Assembly: GCA_964630375.1 (NCBI GenBank)
Contig: CAZVRT010000002.1
Location: 41,706-105,705 of the forward strand
From: an uncultured Candidatus Saccharibacteria bacterium
GTDB lineage: Bacteria; Patescibacteriota; Minisyncoccia; Phycocordibacterales; JAACPR01
Length of the DNA stretch: 64,000 bases
Direction: 5' to 3'
How positions within the stretch are numbered: position 1 is the first letter of the stretch; every line of letters starts with the position of its first letter. The notes beneath the pieces are model-generated. The model saw nothing but the letters and a program-made list of their open reading frames with translations, was not told the DNA's origin and did not search any database. A program made the translations under genes and the position numbers. Shown here piece after piece: positions 24,221 to 36,208 of this stretch.

Positions 24221-26281
24221 CTACAAGTCGATATCAGCAGATTTTGCGTTTGTTGTGATGAACGATTTTCGAGCTGGAACATCTGTTCCCATTAACATAT
24301 CAAACACCTTGTCAGCTTCTTCACCATCTTCGATACTAACTTGTTTCATTACTCGATTATTTTTATCCATAGTTGTTTCTTTCAACTCATCAGCGTTCAT
24401 TTCTCCAAGACCTTTGTATCTTTGAACTCGAATCTTCGGCGCACGCTTTGATTTTTCATCTGTCTCTTCTTCAATTTCAATTACATTTCCGTCTTCATCT
24501 AATTCATCTTCTTGTGGTTCTTCATCATCACCTAAATACGCTTTCTTTTCTTCATCAGAATACAAATAGACAACTTCTTTTCCTTTTGTAATTTTATAAA
24601 GCGGAGATTGAGCAATATACAAATACCCTCCTTCAATTACAGGTCTGAAATATCGGTAGAACAAAGTCAAAAGCAAAGTTGCAATGTGAGCACCATCGAC
24701 ATCGGCATCTGTGGCAATAATAATTTTGTGATATCGAAGTTTTGAAATATCAAATGTATCTCCAATTGCTGTTCCAAGTGCAACAACTAGATTTTTAATT
24801 TGTTCAGAAGAAAGCATTCTGTCCAGTCGTGCTCGCTCAACATTCAAAATCTTTCCTCGAAGTGGCAGCACAGCTTGTGTTCGACGATCTCGTCCAACTT
24901 TTGCAGTACCTCCGGCAGAGTCTCCCTCTACAATAAACAATTCAGATTCCTCAGCGCTTTTAGTCTGACAGTCTGCAAGCTTTCCAGGAAGTGTCATTCC
25001 TTCCAAAGCTCCTTTTCTAAGTACAGAATCTTTCGCAGCTTTCGCAGCTTTTCTAGCTTTCACAGCAAGAATCGCTTTTTGAACCATTGCTTTCGCATCG
25101 TCTGGGTTTTCTTCCAAGAAATACGAGAACGCTTCTCCAAAAACACTTTCTACCGCTCCTCTAGCCTCTACAGAACCAAGTTTTGCTTTTGTTTGTCCTT
25201 CAAATTGAATCTCTGGCATTTTTACAGAAACAACAGCAGTAATACCTTCAAGCACATCGTCTCCAGTAAAACTTTCAACATCTTTTGAATTTGTTTTTTG
25301 TTTCTTTACATAGTTGTTTAAACTTCTTGTCAGAGCAGTTTTAAAACCTGTTATGTGTGTTCCACCTTCAGGGTTGCTAATAGTGTTTGCAAATGCGTTT
25401 ATTCTCGCAGAAATATCATCTACATATTGAAGAGCAACTTCAACATTTACATCACCAACATCTTGTTGAACATGAAAAATATTTTTATGAATCGGAGATT
25501 GAATTTTATTTTGATACGCAACAAGCGAACGAAGTCCTCCTTCGAAATAGAAAGTTTTTGAAGGCGCTTCTGCTTCACAGTCACCCAAATAATGAACATT
25601 ATCTGGAATATCTTTTGGATCAGCTTTTCTTAAATCAACAACAGAAATTCTCAAACCACTTACCAAATAGGCTTGTTGTCGCATGTGATTAACACATCTT
25701 TTATAATCAAAAATAACAGTTTCAAAAATTGTTGGATCTGGTTGGAATGTAATAATTGTTCCTTGGAAATCTGATTTACCAACTTTCTTTACAGGACCTT
25801 TTGGTTTTCCAATATTATATTCTTGGACATATTTCGCTCCACCTGTATGAACTTCAGCTTTAGCAAAAGTAGAAAGCGCGTTTACAACTGAAGCACCCAC
25901 ACCGTGCAAACCTCCCGAAACTTTATAACCAGAACCCTCTCCTCCGAACTTACCTCCGGCATGAAGAGTTGTCATAATAGTTTCCAAAGCAGAAACTTTT
26001 GTAACCTTGTGAACATCAACAGGAATACCTCGTCCGTTGTCAGCTACTCTGATAGTGTTGTCAGGCAAAAACGCAATTTCGATATTGTTGGCATGACCAG
26101 CCATTGCCTCATCGCGAGAGTTATCAAAAATCTCAATAATAAGGTGATGAAGACCATCTGGACCTGTTGTACCAATATACATTCCCGGCCGTTTTCGCAC
26201 CGGTTCCAACCCTTCCAAAACCTGAATCTGATCTGCTCCGTAGTTACTCTTAGGTGCTTTTTTATCGTCGTTTTTTGCCAT
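24221..26281 (-). CDS. gyrB: DNA gyrase subunit B
   Basis: GHKL ATPase 'HHLIIEIFDNSRDEAMAG', 'DNGRGIPVD', TOPRIM 'ELFIVEGDSAGGTAK' and 'QRYKGLGEMNADEL'. Confidence 0.9.
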   Translation of the reverse strand: MAKNDDKKAPKSNYGADQIQVLEGLEPVRKRPGMYIGTTGPDGLHHLIIEIFDNSRDEAMAGHANNIEIAFLPDNTIRVADNGRGIPVDVHKVTKVSALETIMTTLHAGGKFGGEGSGYKVSGGLHGVGASVVNALSTFAKAEVHTGGAKYVQEYNIGKPKGPVKKVGKSDFQGTIITFQPDPTIFETVIFDYKRCVNHMRQQAYLVSGLRISVVDLRKADPKDIPDNVHYLGDCEAEAPSKTFYFEGGLRSLVAYQNKIQSPIHKNIFHVQQDVGDVNVEVALQYVDDISARINAFANTISNPEGGTHITGFKTALTRSLNNYVKKQKTNSKDVESFTGDDVLEGITAVVSVKMPEIQFEGQTKAKLGSVEARGAVESVFGEAFSYFLEENPDDAKAMVQKAILAVKARKAAKAAKDSVLRKGALEGMTLPGKLADCQTKSAEESELFIVEGDSAGGTAKVGRDRRTQAVLPLRGKILNVERARLDRMLSSEQIKNLVVALGTAIGDTFDISKLRYHKIIIATDADVDGAHIATLLLTLFYRYFRPVIEGGYLYIAQSPLYKITKGKEVVYLYSDEEKKAYLGDDEEPQEDELDEDGNVIEIEEETDEKSKRAPKIRVQRYKGLGEMNADELKETTMDKNNRVMKQVSIEDGEEADKVFDMLMGTDVPARKSFITTNAKSADIDL

Positions 26282-27734: not shown

Positions 27735-30065
27735 CTATCGAACCTTCCAACCAGTTTGACTGTTTAAAACTTGAGAAACTTTTTCCATTATCGAGTTAAT
27801 TTGTTCATCAGTTAATGTTTTTTCGAAAGATTGAAAAACTATTCTAAACGCATATGAAACGTTTCCATCTTTCTCAAACTTATCGAATAGGCGATTTTGT
27901 ACAACCAAATCTCCGGCATTTTCTTTTATTAAATTCCAAACATCTTCTTCTGAAACATTTTGTGGAACCCAAACAGCAATATCGCGCACAATAAAAGGAT
28001 AAATTGAAAACGCTTTATATTGTTTTGGAGAAAATTCTTTTTGAATTTTATAAAAACTATTTTGATCAACTTCCGGCAACTTTGAAATAATTTTATCTAA
28101 GTTTATTTCTGCAACTTTTTCTTTTATTTCAAAATCTGCATCACTTAGACTAAATTTATTTTTCAATTCCTCAATTGTTTTTTTCAAAGATTTTGCATTT
28201 GAGTTCGCAATTCCAAGTGTCAAAAATTCTTCTTCACCCTTAAACACTTTTCCAATTTCAAAAATTCGTACTTCACCCAAACCAAGTAAATCAATATTTC
28301 TTGTATTCAATTCTAAACTTTCTTTCAATCCGTCAGATAAATTATTTCTTAAAAAGCCTTTATCTTTTGTTAGAGGATTTGAAATCTGCACATCACCTTT
28401 TGATTGCAACGTATATGTCATCACATCCGTATACCCAAGACTCAAAAGAAAATCAGCGAACTCAAGAGAATAATATTGTGTCTTATCAAGCAACCGTGCA
28501 GTTTCTCTTTTTACCTCGTTGTTTCCAATATTTGAATAACCATAAACGCGTGCGATTTCTTCAATCAAATCTTCTTTGATTCGCACATCAATTCTTTCAT
28601 CCGGCACAGTCACCACAAATCTTTCTTCATCAGGATTTACAACTCTTCCATATCCAACAATATTTTGAAACCTTGTAGAATTTTTTATATCCTCGATAGT
28701 AACACCAGCATTGTTTTCTTCTGTACAATGAATCACTTCGTCATTCCCAAGATAAATTCCACAATGATCTACTCCTTCTGGAACTTGTATTCCTTTCATA
28801 AACTCGATACTTTCAGTATCTATTTTTCTATTTAAAATTCCTGTATTTGAAAAAATTAAATCTCCAGGCAACAAATTGTCTTTACCAATTTTAGAACTAA
28901 ATACATATTGATCTATCGACATTCGCGGAATTGAAGCTCCAGCTTCTTTGTACAAATAAGAAGTAAAAGATGAACAATCAAACGCTTCCGGTGCATCAAA
29001 CAAAACACTCGCTCCATATTTATAAGGTCGTCCAACAAAACTTTTTGCCATCTCAACGATATTTTCCAACGGCTTTACTTTATTATGTTCAAAATGCAAT
29101 CTATCCAAAATATTTGAAATTTCAGATTCAGAAAGATTTGTTCCAAGATATTTATTCACCTCGTTCACAGATACACCAGTTTTATATTGCCCTGCTTTTC
29201 TTGGATAAACATCAATAATGCTTCCAACTTTTGTATTTTCGTCAGATGCATACTTCAAAAGCATTTCTGTTAGCCGATTCATTGCAATCTCCGCCCACAG
29301 AGGTGTGATATCTCTTTCAAATCTTTTTGAAGATTCAGTATCAATTTGCAAAGCTCGTCTAGTTTTTCTTATTGCAACTGCGTCAAAGTTTGCAGCCTCC
29401 AAAAGCAAATTTACAGTTCCTTCTGCAACTTCAGCTTTTTTCCCTCCTTTAATACCTGCAATTGCTAAAACATCTTTTTCATCTGCAATCACCATTTCAT
29501 TTCCGGCAAATTTCACTTCTTTGTTATCCAAAGTTGTAAATTGAGTTTCGGCTTCAACGGTTCGCACCAAAATTTTCTTTCCACTCAATTTATCAGAATC
29601 AAAAGCATGAAGTGGTTGCCCTAAATCAAACATCACCACATTTGTACAATCAACAATATTATTTATAGATTTTTGCCCAATCGTTTCCAATTTCTTTTTC
29701 AATTCTTCAGGAGACGGACCAAGCTTTACTCCACGAATTTCTCGAGAGATATATCGCTTACAATTTTTGTCGTTCACTTCAACAGAAAATTCTGTTTCAA
29801 AATCAACTCGACTAATTTCATTTGGATAACCCTTCAAAGAAATTCCTGTCAAAACATTTACTTCTTTCGCAATTCCATAATGAGCAAAAGAATCATGTGC
29901 TCTGTTTGGTTGCACATCTATTTCATAAAGAAAATCATCTCCAACTTCTTTTACAGCTTCAACTTCATAAGCACCAACAGTCAAAGTGTGAGCAAGAGAT
30001 TTTGCATCAGGAAGTTTTCCATCTAAATGTTCTTGTATCCAATTGTACGAAACTCGCATACTCAT
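27735..30065 (-). CDS. pheT: Phenylalanyl-tRNA synthetase beta subunit. It lacks the N-terminal tRNA-binding domain and carries an inserted NlpC/P60 peptidase domain.
   Basis: B1-like 'SYNWIQEHL...VQPNRAHDSFAHYGIAKE', a B3/B4 editing region, B5 'VTVPDERIDVRIKEDLIEEIARVYGYSNI' and a C-terminal core. Residues about 335-475 are 'GRPYKYGASVLFDAPEAFDCSSFTSYLYKEAGASIPRMSIDQ...PGDLIFS...VDHCGIYLGNDEVIHC', the NlpC/P60 signature. Confidence 0.85.
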   Translation of the reverse strand: MSMRVSYNWIQEHLDGKLPDAKSLAHTLTVGAYEVEAVKEVGDDFLYEIDVQPNRAHDSFAHYGIAKEVNVLTGISLKGYPNEISRVDFETEFSVEVNDKNCKRYISREIRGVKLGPSPEELKKKLETIGQKSINNIVDCTNVVMFDLGQPLHAFDSDKLSGKKILVRTVEAETQFTTLDNKEVKFAGNEMVIADEKDVLAIAGIKGGKKAEVAEGTVNLLLEAANFDAVAIRKTRRALQIDTESSKRFERDITPLWAEIAMNRLTEMLLKYASDENTKVGSIIDVYPRKAGQYKTGVSVNEVNKYLGTNLSESEISNILDRLHFEHNKVKPLENIVEMAKSFVGRPYKYGASVLFDAPEAFDCSSFTSYLYKEAGASIPRMSIDQYVFSSKIGKDNLLPGDLIFSNTGILNRKIDTESIEFMKGIQVPEGVDHCGIYLGNDEVIHCTEENNAGVTIEDIKNSTRFQNIVGYGRVVNPDEERFVVTVPDERIDVRIKEDLIEEIARVYGYSNIGNNEVKRETARLLDKTQYYSLEFADFLLSLGYTDVMTYTLQSKGDVQISNPLTKDKGFLRNNLSDGLKESLELNTRNIDLLGLGEVRIFEIGKVFKGEEEFLTLGIANSNAKSLKKTIEELKNKFSLSDADFEIKEKVAEINLDKIISKLPEVDQNSFYKIQKEFSPKQYKAFSIYPFIVRDIAVWVPQNVSEEDVWNLIKENAGDLVVQNRLFDKFEKDGNVSYAFRIVFQSFEKTLTDEQINSIMEKVSQVLNSQTGWKVR

Positions 30066-30823: not shown

Positions 30824-31825
30824 TCAAATTTCAGCGCGATATAACTCTTGACCGTCTTTTATAAATATAGTGTTACCTCGCAACTTAAATTCAGGCTTTT
30901 CGCCTTTAAATATAGTTTGAAGGTTTTGTCTTGATCTATCGTCAGCCTCTACAGCAAAAATGTGATTTTGTGTAGCAACAATAAAAGCGTCATCTCTGTT
31001 TGGATAAAAATCAAATTGCGAAATATCCGTATTCAAAGAAACTTTTATATTATTTTTACAATCTCTAATATTACAGAAGAAAAACGGAGTCGCCTTTACT
31101 TCACCTGTCCAATAAACTTGAATATCACCAGATTCCAACCAAGCAATCATCTTTCCAGATTCTCTTAATTGTTTTTTGTTTTCAATATCTTTGATATTTA
31201 ATTTATTTAAATAATCAGGAATTATTATTTTTGAAGAAGTTGCAGGTTTTGTTGAAGTTGTTTTTGTCGAAGTCGCAGAAGAAGTTGAAACAATAATTTC
31301 TTCTTTAAATACAACTAGGTTTCTATCCGGAGTTGTAGTTGAGGTAAAAATAGCCAAAGTGTCTTCGTATTCTTTATTCAAAGTTCTAGTTGTTGTAGAT
31401 TTTTGATCTTTGTCTAAAGTTTCTGTTTCAGTAAATTGTTCAATCTTTTTGAAAGGAATTTCAATCGGCAACATCAAAATTCTAGCCTCTGTCACGATAT
31501 TCGGATATACATTTAATTCTTTATACCAAGGCAAGTATCCGTCTTTCTCAACTCGAATTTGATATGACTGATTTGATTTCAGATTTTGAACCAAAATATT
31601 TCTCAAAAGCAAACCTCCTGATTCTGCAAATTCTTCGTCAACAAACAATCTGGTATCAGATAAATCAGAGTGAATAAAAAATCCACCAGTCTTTTCAAAA
31701 GTTAAGTTCTCCCAATCCAATCTATAACCAGAAGAGTACGCCAAAAGAAACGGAATAGAAATTATAAAAATTAAAAATAAAAATCCCAATGAAAATGATC
31801 TTCGTTTTTTTGATAATGGTTTCAT
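30824..31825 (-). CDS. Membrane-anchored PEGA-domain protein with a Thr/Ser-rich linker
   Basis: N-terminal TM 'FLFLIFIISIPFLLAY', a PEGA-like 'YQIRVEKDGYLPWYKELNV' and 'TSSATSTKTTSTKPATSS'. Confidence 0.4.
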   Translation of the reverse strand: MKPLSKKRRSFSLGFLFLIFIISIPFLLAYSSGYRLDWENLTFEKTGGFFIHSDLSDTRLFVDEEFAESGGLLLRNILVQNLKSNQSYQIRVEKDGYLPWYKELNVYPNIVTEARILMLPIEIPFKKIEQFTETETLDKDQKSTTTRTLNKEYEDTLAIFTSTTTPDRNLVVFKEEIIVSTSSATSTKTTSTKPATSSKIIIPDYLNKLNIKDIENKKQLRESGKMIAWLESGDIQVYWTGEVKATPFFFCNIRDCKNNIKVSLNTDISQFDFYPNRDDAFIVATQNHIFAVEADDRSRQNLQTIFKGEKPEFKLRGNTIFIKDGQELYRAEI

Positions 31826-31837
31826 TTAATTTACTAA

Positions 31838-33401
31838 TTATTTTACCTCACTTCTGTGTTTTGGTGTAACCCAAAATCCCATGTATTTTCCAAACATTAA
31901 TCTTGTTTGCGCATCTAATCCAGGAATCGCACCGAAGATAACAATTGTAAATGGAATCAAAAACCATTGAACAGCCATAATGAACCATTTCCATTTTCTG
32001 TGTTTGATATACGGTGGCATTTTTGGAATCAAAGTGAAAGCAATCACCGCAGAAACCACAAGACCACTCATCGCAAGAATCATTAAGTTTCTTGTAATAA
32101 TCGGCAAATTGTAAGAAAGAATTGTTGTTCTAAATTCCGATCCTCCTAGAATTAAAGGTAACCAACCTAAAAGCAAAATCACAAGCGGATTGGTAGCCAA
32201 AGACCAAAAACCTTCCAACTGAATCAAGCTGTACTTAATCTTATCTTTCAAAGCAATTTTCTTATGCTTCATAAAGTTGAACAACATATATGGAACATTC
32301 TCCACTCCCCAACTCCATCGTCGGTGTTGCTTATAAATATTCACCATTGTTTGCCAGAAAGTTGGCGCCAAGTTTGCATCCATAGAAACCGGATACGAAA
32401 TAGGAACAACTCGATAATTTCCATCATGCGCAAAATACAAATTCCAAAAAATTCTTGAATCTTCCGAAACCATATTTTTTTGCCAATAACCAATTTTTTG
32501 CAAAACAGAAAACGGAACAGAATGCGAAGAAAAAGTAGTAAGCTTTTCTGGCCGCTCTTGTTGAATCATTTGCCAAAAAGTAGAAGACATCGCTGTCACA
32601 CGAGAGATCGCCGGTGCTTCCCAAATATTATTATTGTACAAAGGCACAGGTTGATAAGAAGCATGATATCGGTCTTCTGTTGTTAGGAAATACCAAGTTA
32701 GACAAAGAAGATATTGCTCCCAAGCCACAGTATCAATATCAAAAGCAGAAACCAAAACATCTTCGTAAGGAATTTGATTTACATCCAAAACTTCAATTCT
32801 TGCTCTTTCAGCAGCATAAGAAATGTTTGAACCTTTTCCAGCCATTTCACCAACAATATCTGCAGGATGTCTTGTTGTAATAAAATGTGCAAACTCACCA
32901 GAATATTTTTCCTTCATCTCTTGTGCCAAAGCCCAAGGTTCTTCTCCGGCTCTTTCTTCCGCCGCCAAAACAACAATGATTTTTTTCTTGTCATATTTTG
33001 TCTTCAACAAAGACTGAATACTTCCTTCTACAACATCAATTCCTTCTTTATAAAAAGGAAGAATGACCATGTGATAAATATGTTCGTATTTTAAATCCTT
33101 CAATTGTTCCTCCCAATCAACTTTTATATTATGTAAAAGCCTCTTCCAATTGTGTCGGTGATGGTATGACAAGTGAATTGTTTTCAAAAGCCAATACAAG
33201 TCGAAAGCAATAATGAAAAAAGCCGCCCAAACAGGTTTGAAAATCGAAAGAATAACTATTATTAAAATTGTTCCCCAAGAAAGTGCACCTGGCAATATTT
33301 CTAAAAGCCTAAAAATTTTTCTGTCTTTACCTTGTAGATGAAAAGCATGTCCTGCATTAAATCCGGGGATTTTTATATACTCCTCATTCATGGAGCCACT
33401 T
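31838..33401 (-). CDS. Processive family-2 membrane glycosyltransferase (cellulose/chitin/hyaluronan-synthase-like). The probable start 'MNEEYIK' overlaps the tRNA-Thr 3' end by 1 nt, and the ORF-track start at 33451 reads through the tRNA.
   Basis: N-terminal TM helices, a GT2 region 'KIIVVLAAEERAGEE', 'FDIDT', the processive-GT2 hallmark 'QHRRWSWG' (QxxRW) and multiple C-terminal TM helices. Confidence 0.55.
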
Positions 33402-33476
33402 GTCGGGCTCGAACCGACGACCTGCCGTTTACAAAACGGCTGCTCTACCAACTGAGCTAAAGTGGCGTGTTTACTA
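33401..33476 (-). tRNA. tRNA-Thr(UGU) with genomically encoded CCA
   Basis: The minus strand reads GCCACTTTAGCTCAGTTGGTAGAGCAGCCGTTTTGTAAACGGCAGGTCGTCGGTTCGAGCCCGACAAGTGGCTCCA. The anticodon loop is UUUGUAA. Confidence 0.85.
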
Positions 33477-33860: not shown

Positions 33861-34448
33861 TTATTCTACCACTGAAAATCGCGCGATGCGACCAACTTCG
33901 ATTCTTTCTCCAAGCTTTTGAATAGCTTCTTCAATAAGTTTTGCAACTGTTTTTGAAGAATCTTTAATGAATTCTTGTTCCAAAAGAACTTGTTCTTTGA
34001 AATAAGAATTCAATTTTCCTTCCAAGATTTTTTCTTGCATATCTGCAGGCTTGTCTTGAATTTCATTTTGGAAAACTTCTGTTGCTTTTTGTCTTGAAAC
34101 TTCATCAATTTCCGCAACTCTTACAAACTTTGGATTTGTTGCAGCAATTTGCATAGCTAATTCTTTTGCTAGATTTTGAAATTCTTCATTTTTTGAAACG
34201 AAGTCAGTCTCACACAAAAGCTCAACCATTGCTCCAACATTTCCACCTGAGTGAATGTAAGAAGATACTGTTCCAGCTCCCAAATCTCTATCCGCTTTTT
34301 TAGACGCAGCTTTTGATGAAAGTTTTTGCAAGATAATTCTTGCTTTATCCATATCTCCACCCGCTTCTTCCAAAGCGTTTTTACATTGCATCATAGATAC
34401 ACCAGTTGCTTCTCTTAGTGCTTTAATTTGGTCAGTTGTAACAGCCAT
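33861..34448 (-). CDS. tsf: Elongation factor Ts, short form
   Basis: UBA-like 'IKALREATGVSMMQCKNALEEAGGDMDKA' and 'GAMVELLCETDFVSKNEEF'. Confidence 0.85.
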   Translation of the reverse strand: MAVTTDQIKALREATGVSMMQCKNALEEAGGDMDKARIILQKLSSKAASKKADRDLGAGTVSSYIHSGGNVGAMVELLCETDFVSKNEEFQNLAKELAMQIAATNPKFVRVAEIDEVSRQKATEVFQNEIQDKPADMQEKILEGKLNSYFKEQVLLEQEFIKDSSKTVAKLIEEAIQKLGERIEVGRIARFSVVE

Positions 34449-34473
34449 AAAAATTTAAAAAATTAATTGTAAT

Positions 34474-35199
34474 TTATTTTGTTGCAGGAGCTGATTTCTT
34501 TCTTTTTAATCCTGCTTGGTATGAAGAAACGATTTCTCCAAGAACATAGTTTATTGTAGCAACAGAACTGTCATTTCCAAGTACTGGGTACTTGATATCT
34601 GAAATATCACAGTCTGAATTTGAAAGAGTAATAACAGGAATTTTTTCCAACTTAGCTTCAGCAACAGCGTTGTCTTCTTTTCGAACATCAACAATGAATA
34701 CTGCAGCCGGTTTTGATTTCATGTTTGTGATTCCACCAAATCTTTCGTTTAGTCTTTCGATTTCTCGATCAATCAAAAGTCTTTCTTTCTTTGTGTATTT
34801 AGCCAAAAGTCCTTTTGCTTTTTCCATTGAAAGTTTTTCAAATCGAGAAACTCTTTTTTGAATTTCTTCAAAGTTTGTAAGAGTACCTCCAATCCATCGT
34901 CCAGCAACGTAAGGTTGGTCGATTTTTTCTGCAAAATCTTTTACTGGTCTAATAGCTTCTCTTTTTCCTGAAACAAAAAGGATTTGTTTTCCTTGTGCGC
35001 CAACTTCTTCAGCAAAAGCTTTTGCTTCTTCTAGTTGAAGTGAAGTTTTTTCAAGATCAAAAATTTCAACTCGATTTTTGATACCAAAAATAAAAGGTGC
35101 TACTGAAGGATGTCTTCTAGATTTTGAATAACCAAAGTGCGCCCCTGCTTTAAACAGAGCTTCTACCACATCTTTGTTAACTGTCTTTTCATTAGTCAT
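34474..35199 (-). CDS. rpsB: 30S ribosomal protein S2
   Basis: 'LFKAGAHFGYSKSRRHPSVAPFIFG' and 'WIGGTLTNF'. Confidence 0.9.
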   Translation of the reverse strand: MTNEKTVNKDVVEALFKAGAHFGYSKSRRHPSVAPFIFGIKNRVEIFDLEKTSLQLEEAKAFAEEVGAQGKQILFVSGKREAIRPVKDFAEKIDQPYVAGRWIGGTLTNFEEIQKRVSRFEKLSMEKAKGLLAKYTKKERLLIDREIERLNERFGGITNMKSKPAAVFIVDVRKEDNAVAEAKLEKIPVITLSNSDCDISDIKYPVLGNDSSVATINYVLGEIVSSYQAGLKRKKSAPATK

Positions 35200-35251
35200 G
35201 TAGGCACGAGTTTATCAGAAAGTAAGAAATATCGCAAGAGTTTCAATACAG

Positions 35252-36208
35252 TTACTCTGCTTTGGCAAACTCTTCGATTTTTTCGAAAATATCGTCCAAA
35301 TCGCCAAGCATAATTTCATCAATATTGTGCCAGTTTTCCTTGATTCGGTGGTCTGTAACACGGTTTTGAGGAAAGTTATAAGTCCTGATTTTCTCTGATC
35401 TATCCCCTGTTCCAACCTGATCTTTTCGCTCTGCTGAATACTTTTTCGCCTCTTCTTCTTCTTTTAAAGCCTCTAATTTAGCAATCAAAATACTCATCGC
35501 TTTTTCTCGGTTGGCTTGTTGGCTTCTTTCTGAAGTTGAACGAACATCAATACCTGTTGGCTTATGAACCAATCTCACCGCAGTCTCAACTTTGTTAACA
35601 TTTTGCCCTCCAGCTCCTCCAGAACGAGAAAATTCCATTTCAATATCATCGGGTTTAATTTCAATTTTTGTCTTTTTTCGAATTGGCAAAACCGCAACTG
35701 AAGCAGTCGATGTGTGAATTCTCCCTTGTTTTTCTGTTGCCGGAATTCTTTGAACTCGATGAACACCAGTTTCGTGACGCAAAGTTTTGTAAACCCCTTG
35801 ACCTCGGATTTCAAAAGCCGCTTCTTTGTATCCACCAATATCGTTTTCTGAAGAGTGAATTTTTCTTACTCCCCAACCCTTTTTTTCAGCATATCTTTGA
35901 TACATTTCTGCTAAGTTATATGCAAAAATTGACGCCTCATCTCCACCTGCGCCACCTCGAACTTCTAATATAATTTCATTTGGAAACTGATCTTCTTTTT
36001 CTTCTTCTGCAAAAATAGTGTCCATTTGTTCTAAAATAGCTTTTTGTTGAACATCAATTTGAGTTTTTTCTTCTTCTGCAAGCTCTCGCATTGTCTCGTC
36101 TTCAGACATGGCATCCAAATCCACTCTTTGCTTTTCTAAGCGCTCAAACTCAGACGCCAAAAATTGAGTTTTATGATTTTCTTTATATTTAGTTAAATCA
36201 ATTTCCAT
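35252..36208 (-). CDS. prfA: Peptide chain release factor 1
   Basis: GGQ motif '[25 protein letters not shown]' and the RF1-type PxT tripeptide within '[16 protein letters not shown]'. Confidence 0.85.

Follow-up and report, generated by a model that had tools for sequence, protein, structure and literature searches.

A predicted NlpC/P60 cysteine amidase domain nested in the B5 domain of the phenylalanyl-tRNA synthetase beta subunit of Paceibacteria

In a 64,000-nucleotide stretch of DNA from an uncultured bacterium labelled Candidatus Saccharibacteria (assembly GCA_964630375.1, contig CAZVRT010000002.1, positions 41,706 to 105,705; this whole stretch is hereafter called the window), pheT, the gene for the beta subunit of phenylalanyl-tRNA synthetase (PheRS), was found to carry a complete NlpC/P60 (C40) papain-like domain that lies in frame within the B5 domain. 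The same arrangement recurs across a large clade of Paceibacteria, where the domain has been inherited vertically, keeps its catalytic residues almost without exception, is linked to a neighbouring gene for a second papain-like peptidase (Peptidase_C39_2), and in lineages with a single-chain PheRS persists as a separate protein. We put it at even chances that the insert works as a cysteine amidase in its own right, with PheRS beta as its housing, and acts with the C39_2 protein, probably on muropeptide-like peptides.

The host protein and the site of insertion

The window protein is a genuine PheT. It scored 424.4 bits against the NCBIfam model TIGR00472 (pheT_bact; curated equivalog cut-off 402.65), its B5, catalytic-like module and FDX-ACB domains follow one another in the canonical order, and its gene starts 14 nucleotides after the end of pheS. 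PheS matched PF01409 over residues 4-242 (E 2.4e-84) and TIGR00468 of NCBIfam with 250.8 bits (cut-off 237.45) in an alignment that begins at model position 67; the N-terminal coiled-coil is absent, Pfam giving no match to Phe_tRNA-synt_N in the window PheS. A preliminary description of this DNA, made from the letters alone, had regarded PheS as reduced to its catalytic core and PheT as having lost its N-terminal tRNA-binding domain, and both statements held. No match to the B2 OB-fold (tRNA_bind, PF01588) was found in the window PheT, in which residue 43 pairs with residue 160 of the S. haemolyticus protein (2RHS_B). Loss of B2 is on record for many PheRS beta subunits of the Candidate Phyla Radiation (CPR), and its absence is therefore no argument against PheT identity (PMC5370408). 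Apart from B2, the defining features of PheT and of the NlpC/P60 family that were tested were all found.

Like other bacterial PheT proteins (2RHS_B, E. coli 3PCO_B and T. thermophilus 1B70_B), the window protein has colinear B1, B3/4, B5, B6/7 and B8 domains and is encoded in a pheS-pheT operon; unlike them it has no B2, is paired with a PheS without the coiled-coil, and has its B5 split by a catalytic domain of about 150 residues. No solved or described PheRS was found to carry such an insert in B5, and a full-text literature search returned no published description of an NlpC domain in PheRS beta, the loss of B2 being the only feature on record.

A hidden Markov model search matched the Pfam profile NLPC_P60 (PF00877) to residues 345-470 with 60.9 bits (E 1.3e-16) against a gathering score of 23. 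The six motifs from which the domain had first been recognised (GRPYKYG, FDCSSF, IPRMSIDQ, PGDLIF, HCGIYLG and VIHC) were all recovered at the places given for them between positions 28641 and 29063 (residues ~335-475), together with the triad of Cys364, His434 and His446. The domain was also correctly taken to be a complete, intein-free insertion in the reading frame of an otherwise colinear pheT, which is a single 776-residue open reading frame (ORF). Its location had been misjudged: it was placed between B3/4 and B5, and three observations put it inside B5. Pfam B5 was matched in two stretches, the best of which (residues 475-510) covers profile positions 32-67 only. In the alignment with 2RHS_B, residue 327 pairs with residue 444 and residue 481 with residue 449, and therefore some 150 residues stand in place of a loop of about four. 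Finally, in an AlphaFold2 model of the module the order of elements is strand b1, helices a1 and a2, strand b2, the NlpC domain, strand b3 and helix a3. The insert has the papain-like alpha+beta fold of the P60 type, and in the model the whole B5::NlpC unit appears to be one compact, self-contained folding module. The coordinates of these features are collected in Table 1.

Table 1. Features of the pheS-pheT region and of single-chain PheRS genes in related loci. Positions are those of the window unless a locus is named; aa, amino acid residues.
Feature	Position	Strand	Basis or remark
pheT, PheRS beta, 776 aa	27735..30065	(-)	One unbroken ORF; domain order B1 remnant, no B2, B3/4, B5 split by NlpC/P60, catalytic-like module (B6/7), FDX-ACB (B8)
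pheS, PheRS alpha, 242 aa	30080..30808	(-)	Class II catalytic core alone; ORF and PF01409
B3/4 editing domain, aa 102-273	29247..29762	(-)	PF03483, E 4.3e-58
B5 N-terminal half, aa ~290-327	29085..29198	(-)	Strand b1, helices a1 and a2, strand b2
NlpC/P60 (C40) papain-like cysteine amidase insert (predicted), aa 328-480	28626..29084	(-)	In b2-b3 hairpin of B5
Codon of catalytic nucleophile Cys364	28974..28976	(-)	Motif F-D-C-S-S
Sub-insert in NlpC/P60, aa ~408-432	28770..28844	(-)	I-x-x-E-S/T-V/I-E-F-L/M-x-G-T, directly N-terminal of catalytic His
Codon of catalytic His434	28764..28766	(-)	Motif V-D-H-x-G-x-Y
Codon of third triad residue His446	28728..28730	(-)	
B5 C-terminal half, aa 481-513	28527..28625	(-)	Strand b3, helix a3
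Catalytic-like module B6/B7, aa ~526-680	28026..28490	(-)	PF17759
FDX-ACB anticodon-binding domain B8, aa 687-776	27738..28007	(-)	PF03147, E 2.5e-24
Peptidase_C39_2 papain-like cysteine peptidase (predicted), 190 aa	27143..27715	(-)	Pfam; start 19 nucleotides past pheT stop
Neighbours sharing the gene order of distant relatives	24221-26281, 33861-36208	(-)	
Single-chain PheRS	L072:4757-5926		
Single-chain PheRS	L045:4766-5914		
Single-chain PheRS	L131:3826-4971		
Single-chain PheRS	L133:3853-5001		
Single-chain PheRS	L134:3794-4963		

Distribution, inheritance and conservation of the insert

All 120 of the best PheT homologue clusters (43-100% identity, drawn from NCBI, JGI, ENA and Logan) contain the insert within a common Pfam architecture, an answer to the question, raised at the outset, of whether orthologues in related genomes share it. 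The insertion site is identical in every cluster, the length of the insert varies from 147 to 177 residues, and two clusters (P0059 and P0065) retain B2 alongside it. When the insert alone was used as query, a HMMER search returned 98 clusters (50% identity) at E<=1e-30, and most of the listed matches were proteins of ~780 residues aligned at ~335-480. When one genome of each GTDB species was scanned by pattern, at least 537 related stretches were obtained, a count based on motif-seeded tblastn that may contain a few relatives other than PheT, and the genome-locus counts in this work refer to the best 80 of them. In 75 of these 80 the domain is embedded in pheT and in five it stands alone, and the embedded architecture was uninterrupted in 98 of the 103 fetched loci with a classifiable domain. 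The titles of the 80 loci name Nomura-, Yonath-, Campbell-, Lloyd-, Taylor-, Zambryski- and Wolfebacteria, Paceibacterota and Minisyncoccia, and many of the metagenome-assembled genomes (MAGs) carry a generic CPR title. Within a large clade of Paceibacteria the nested domain is the rule, and among characterised PheRS it is non-standard; the initial statement that this is not a standard architecture was borne out for the characterised enzymes and not within the clade itself.

Two further observations concern labels. Many of the carrier MAGs are titled 'Candidatus Saccharibacteria' although the named relatives are all Parcubacteria or Paceibacteria, and the taxon labels may be generic. The orthologues are variously called 'phenylalanine--tRNA ligase beta subunit-related protein', 'C40 family peptidase', 'hypothetical protein' or 'phenylalanyl-tRNA synthetase beta subunit', and since one gene bears several inconsistent names it may serve as a warning for automated annotation.

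It had been suggested that a frameshift might have made one gene of two, and mis-assembly could have the same effect. We give such an artefact next to no probability, as the same unbroken architecture with an identical insertion point was seen in the 120 independent clusters and in nearly all classifiable loci, and no point in its favour was found. An intein or another mobile in-frame element was likewise rejected, there being no Hint or homing-endonuclease Pfam match and no variation in position. In GC content the insert (0.327) does not differ from the remainder of pheT (0.330), in agreement with the earlier view that the insertion is not recent. Pairwise distances of the insert correlate with those of the remaining PheT sequence (r 0.60, a value reached by 0 of 999 Mantel permutations), the insert diverging slightly less (0.48) than the remainder (0.51), and a recent horizontal insertion was rejected on both grounds. 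Because the insert is shared, its site constant and its distances correlated with those of its host, the pattern is that of one ancient insertion that was vertically inherited.

Cys364, His434 and His446 align with the catalytic residues of C. difficile Acd24020 (7CFL) in the non-permuted Cys-His-His order; the first two were kept in 120 of 120 clusters and the third in 118. In a second set of 111 sequences from genome loci, metagenome loci and stand-alone proteins, independent of the 120 clusters, the corresponding counts were 110, 110 and 103, the third position being F, Q or Y in eight. Residues of the P60 groove (D363, S365, P380, R381, D385, Q386, G401 and D402) are also conserved in the 120 clusters, and the NlpC domain as a whole is on a par in conservation with B3/4 and the anticodon-binding domain and exceeds the catalytic-like module. 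These sequence patterns argue that the insert is apparently an active cysteine peptidase.

The preliminary description had considered a repurposed RNA- or protein-binding module, which the near-invariant catalytic dyad disfavours. In a related form of this idea, the insert would be a non-catalytic structural prop, a surface for protein docking or a sensor of ligands, and would make up for the absence of B2 and of the N-terminal domain of PheS. Both B2 and the PheS coiled-coil are indeed missing from the window proteins, and catalytically dead NlpC/P60 domains such as RipD do exist. Nonetheless, a non-catalytic role seems very unlikely to us, given a Cys-His dyad present in all clusters and in 110 of the 111 further sequences and a module that outlives the entire PheT; compensation for the loss of B2 was rejected in its own right, the B2-retaining clusters P0059 and P0065 having the insert as well.

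The one sequence of the 111 without a catalytic site is an embedded copy (L055), in which the triad has become S-R-Y. A stand-alone protein, P0226 (L134/L135:5001-5669), has F-S-C-S-S for F-D-C-S-S and M-P-S-L-S-I-D-K for I-P-R-x-S-x-D-Q, and no C39_2 gene adjoins it. Judged from their motifs, both copies show signs of decay.

Two elements near the active site set the family apart. A sub-insert directly before the catalytic His, a predicted beta-hairpin of 16-25 residues, is missing from canonical P60 enzymes (a 16-residue gap in 7CFL) and has E421 conserved in 103, F422 in 113 and G425 in 111 of 120 clusters, and a conserved loop, S353-D357-P359, is four residues longer than its canonical counterpart. 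The hairpin measures ~25 residues in most members and reaches 40-45 in part of the embedded forms and in every stand-alone form of the L045 type; such length variants were seen in P0011, P0013 and the stand-alone forms L045, L072 and P0199, and the terminal E-x-x-E-F/Y-x-x-G-T was always kept.

The C39_2 neighbour and the stand-alone modules

The gene that follows pheT in the window encodes a predicted Peptidase_C39_2 protein, whose catalytic set of Gln11, Cys25 and His138 recurs in 54-55 of 55 sequences. Of 73 assessable genome loci, 46 have a C39_2 gene directly 3' of pheT and in the same orientation, at gaps of -46 to +376 nucleotides and often with overlapping stop and start codons, and 54 have one somewhere in the locus. 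When the search was reversed and seeded from the C39_2 subfamily in metagenomes, pheT was found upstream in 39 of 41 assessable loci; the NlpC insert was visible in 28 of these, and in 11 the contig ends inside pheT. Even a distant C39_2 member (37% identity) lies near a pheT::NlpC gene. The subfamily as a whole occurs almost exclusively downstream of pheT::NlpC or of a stand-alone B5::NlpC gene. A sequence search of the PDB found no relative of the C39_2 protein, and its structural model resembles about equally the leader-peptide C39 peptidases, the phytochelatin-synthase-like Alr0975, proteases of the Ufm1/ubiquitin type and the isopeptidase PeiR.

Inspection of the sequences of PheT, the stand-alone modules and C39_2 (and of Pfam matches for PheT) revealed no signal peptide and no wall-binding domain. 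PheT begins with a canonical B1 start, and the stand-alone modules and C39_2 begin directly with their domains. Since such signals are absent, a cytoplasmic location is likely. Patescibacteria are host-attached parasites, and it could be imagined that the module is an exported enzyme, released by a non-classical route or through lysis of siblings, that cuts the cell wall of the host organism with C39_2 as a second lytic activity. Its closest relatives include autolysins and phage tail lysins, and Peptidase_C39_2 and NLPC_P60 domains do occur together in phage endolysins. We nevertheless regard export as improbable, because neither enzyme has a signal peptide or wall-binding domain and because PheRS is essential and cytoplasmic, which would make nesting within it an odd route to the outside. 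Membership among the secreted autolysins or lysins was rejected, as the signal peptide or virion association and the wall-binding module that define these enzymes are lacking.

A separate line of evidence came from loci in which PheT itself is gone. Six of them (L045, L051, L072, L098, L131 and L133) encode a single-chain PheRS of 381-389 residues made up of the class II core and FDX-ACB, without B3/4, and what is left of pheT there is a protein of 225-234 residues that consists of B5a, NlpC/P60 and B5b, with C39_2 and gyrB usually coming next, as they do in the window. Stand-alone B5::NlpC proteins overall measure 200-234 residues, and most of them adjoin a single-chain PheRS gene. Of the stand-alone loci, the five that were placed in the tree form one clade. 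In L134/L135 the single-chain PheRS lies on the opposite strand and diverges from the module, and in L132 the module stands away from any PheRS gene and its stop codon overlaps the start of C39_2. From these arrangements it follows that the module need not be covalently part of PheRS, and that its steadiest companion is C39_2.

The single-chain PheRS of this Paceibacteria sublineage resembles the mitochondrial type (TIGR00469) and the 'PheS-related mystery ligase SrmL' (NF051887), which also have a core and FDX-ACB. It scores between SrmL and pheS_mito, and at 209-250 bits it stays under both curated cut-offs (258 and 300). No published account of a single-chain PheRS in Paceibacteria was found by full-text literature search.

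The order prfA/RF-1, rpsB, tsf ... pheS-pheT-C39_2 ... gyrB is common to the window and to distant relatives, including L131, L133 and L134. This gene order, shared with the single-chain relatives, suggests that the stand-alone module arose in place. Directly upstream of pheS in the window lies a gene for a 333-residue protein (30824-31825, minus strand) that has a hydrophobic segment at its N-terminus and matched no Pfam family; homologues of this protein occupy the equivalent position in ~25 of 80 related genome loci. Further upstream, a tRNA-Thr(TGT) gene (33391-33466, minus strand) overlaps the first ~20 codons of a TTG-start ORF of 537 residues (31838-33451, minus strand), which encodes a Glyco_trans_2_3 membrane protein whose true start is probably a downstream Met (MNEEYIK...).

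Candidate substrates and the relation to PheRS

By both sequence and structure the closest relatives of the insert are ordinary peptidoglycan DL-endopeptidases, and the groove motifs D-C-S and P-R-x-x-x-D-Q of these enzymes are retained. The enzymes compared were C. difficile Acd24020, B. subtilis CwlO and LytE, and B. cereus YkfC (3H41); PHROGs gave generic tail-lysin matches only, and cluster look-ups for the nearest NlpC proteins outside PheT yielded no name or taxon that would point to a donor lineage. Unlike these endopeptidases, the insert has no signal peptide, SH3b or LysM domain, is nested in a cytoplasmic aminoacyl-tRNA synthetase (aaRS), and possesses the extra loop and hairpin described above. 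Because of its closest relatives and the retained groove motifs, a peptide of the gamma-D-glutamyl type is the most plausible substrate.

Taken as a mechanism, the reading that we favour is as follows. A complete and apparently catalytically competent NlpC/P60 domain entered the beta2-beta3 hairpin of B5 in the PheRS beta of Paceibacteria (CPR/Patescibacteria) long ago, in a synthetase that would keep all it needs for charging as well as canonical B3/4 editing. The B5::NlpC module would work as a cytoplasmic peptide amidase partnered with a co-transcribed C39_2 peptidase, its likeliest substrates being small peptidoglycan-derived peptides of the gamma-D-glutamyl type that are salvaged or turned over. 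Its activity would be independent of tRNA aminoacylation, PheRS beta providing a constitutively expressed host scaffold. Salvage of such peptides would suit organisms with minimal biosynthesis. The evidence bears directly on the identity and fold of the domain, its insertion point, the conservation of its catalytic residues, its vertical inheritance, its operon linkage and its persistence as a separate protein, while the cytoplasmic location, the cooperation with C39_2 and the kind of substrate are inferences.

The nearest conceptual precedents are the E. coli glutathionylspermidine synthetase/amidase and trypanothione synthetase, in which a CHAP amidase is fused to an ATP-dependent ligase. 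In those fusions the amidase is terminal and reverses the ligase's own product; the PheT insert lies nested within its ligase, an aaRS, and the arrangements in L132 and L134/L135 point to independence from it.

Several observations pull the other way. No C39_2 gene was present within 6 kb in 19 of the 73 assessable loci, and the muropeptide substrate is suggested by homology to DL-endopeptidases. The family-specific loop and sub-insert could mean a different substrate, and the persistence of the module in PheRS in hundreds of species, as well as next to it in stand-alone form, could reflect a functional tie to PheRS and not inherited gene order.

A cytoplasmic substrate unrelated to the cell wall, such as a specific protein or peptide or a gamma-glutamyl or isopeptide-linked compound on which C39_2 would perform a second step, would fit the customised surroundings of the NlpC active site and the even-handed structural resemblances of the C39_2 model. 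Against it stand the P60 groove motifs shared with DL-endopeptidases and the operon, in which no conserved candidate substrate gene is visible, and we rate it as rather unlikely.

A tie to PheRS could take the form of chemistry on tRNA, in which the Cys would attack an activated ester, made by PheRS, of a phenylalanyl, mis-acylated or N-blocked aminoacyl group and serve either as a second site for editing or deacylation, in cis or in trans, or as an aminoacyl-transferase that hands the acyl group on, for instance to a precursor of peptidoglycan. It is consistent with the covalent union of the domain and PheRS beta in hundreds of species, with conserved family-specific elements round its active site, and with a lineage that has lost B3/4 and retains the module, usually right after its editing-less single-chain PheRS. 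The LRAT/PLAAT proteins, which are relatives of NlpC/P60, form thioester acyl-enzyme intermediates. Membership in LRAT/PLAAT was itself rejected, as the profile match falls short of the threshold and the Cys precedes the His, which is the order of the P60 type. The canonical editing site gives further reason for doubt: N142, H153, E223 and T243, which correspond to E. coli N254, H265, E334 and T354 in the alignment to 3PCO_B, are conserved in 119-120 of 120 clusters, and the equivalent of A356 is Ser or Ala. With the editing residues of B3/4 intact, the NlpC domain is no substitute for editing and a second editing site would not be needed; the replacement of a degenerate editing site was rejected for this reason. 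B5, the domain that harbours the insert, is described in the relevant portion of a PheRS review only as a helix-turn-helix 'DNA binding-like' domain (PMC3275996). Taken together with a nearest kinship to ordinary DL-endopeptidases with the same groove motifs, and with the modules that are detached from PheRS and still coupled to C39_2 (L132) or divergent from PheRS (L134/L135), these results leave a tRNA-linked role with a low probability.

The insert is like the INS/YbaK-like domain of ProRS and the CP1 domain of class I enzymes in being a catalytic hydrolase domain set in an aaRS loop and conserved across a clade. Unlike them, it lies in B5 and not in the catalytic domain, in an enzyme that has its own intact editing domain, and no homology to the known aaRS editing folds (B3/4, INS/YbaK, AlaX/N2, CP1 and DTD) was found. 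A bolder proposal would make B5::NlpC a new aaRS catalytic domain whose cysteine accepts the aminoacyl group, or an acyl group that is mis-acylated or N-blocked, from either tRNA(Phe) or Phe-AMP, as an editing enzyme or deacylase with a papain-like fold unprecedented in that role or, together with C39_2, as a tRNA-dependent transferase onto a gamma-D-Glu-containing acceptor, for example a peptidoglycan precursor. This would explain why the module stays in or next to PheRS, including in lineages without a canonical editing domain, and we think it unlikely.

The aaRSs are among the most conserved of proteins, and where new catalytic domains turned up in them, a function in editing or signalling usually came to light. 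In the present case a subunit of an essential synthetase contains, throughout a class of ultra-small bacteria that depend on hosts, a conserved and apparently active cysteine peptidase with a dedicated partner peptidase. The module of ~235 residues and its 190-residue partner make a testable target, and the nested domain may serve as a lineage marker for Paceibacteria. Should the domain act on aminoacyl-tRNA, it would represent a new class of aaRS-associated chemistry. If it is autonomous, as we favour, it would be a clean natural case of domain nesting, with an essential protein put to use as a scaffold for expression in a reduced genome, and it would indicate that organisms unable to make the building blocks themselves have a so far unrecognised cytoplasmic pathway of two enzymes acting on peptides, possibly for the salvage of muropeptides.

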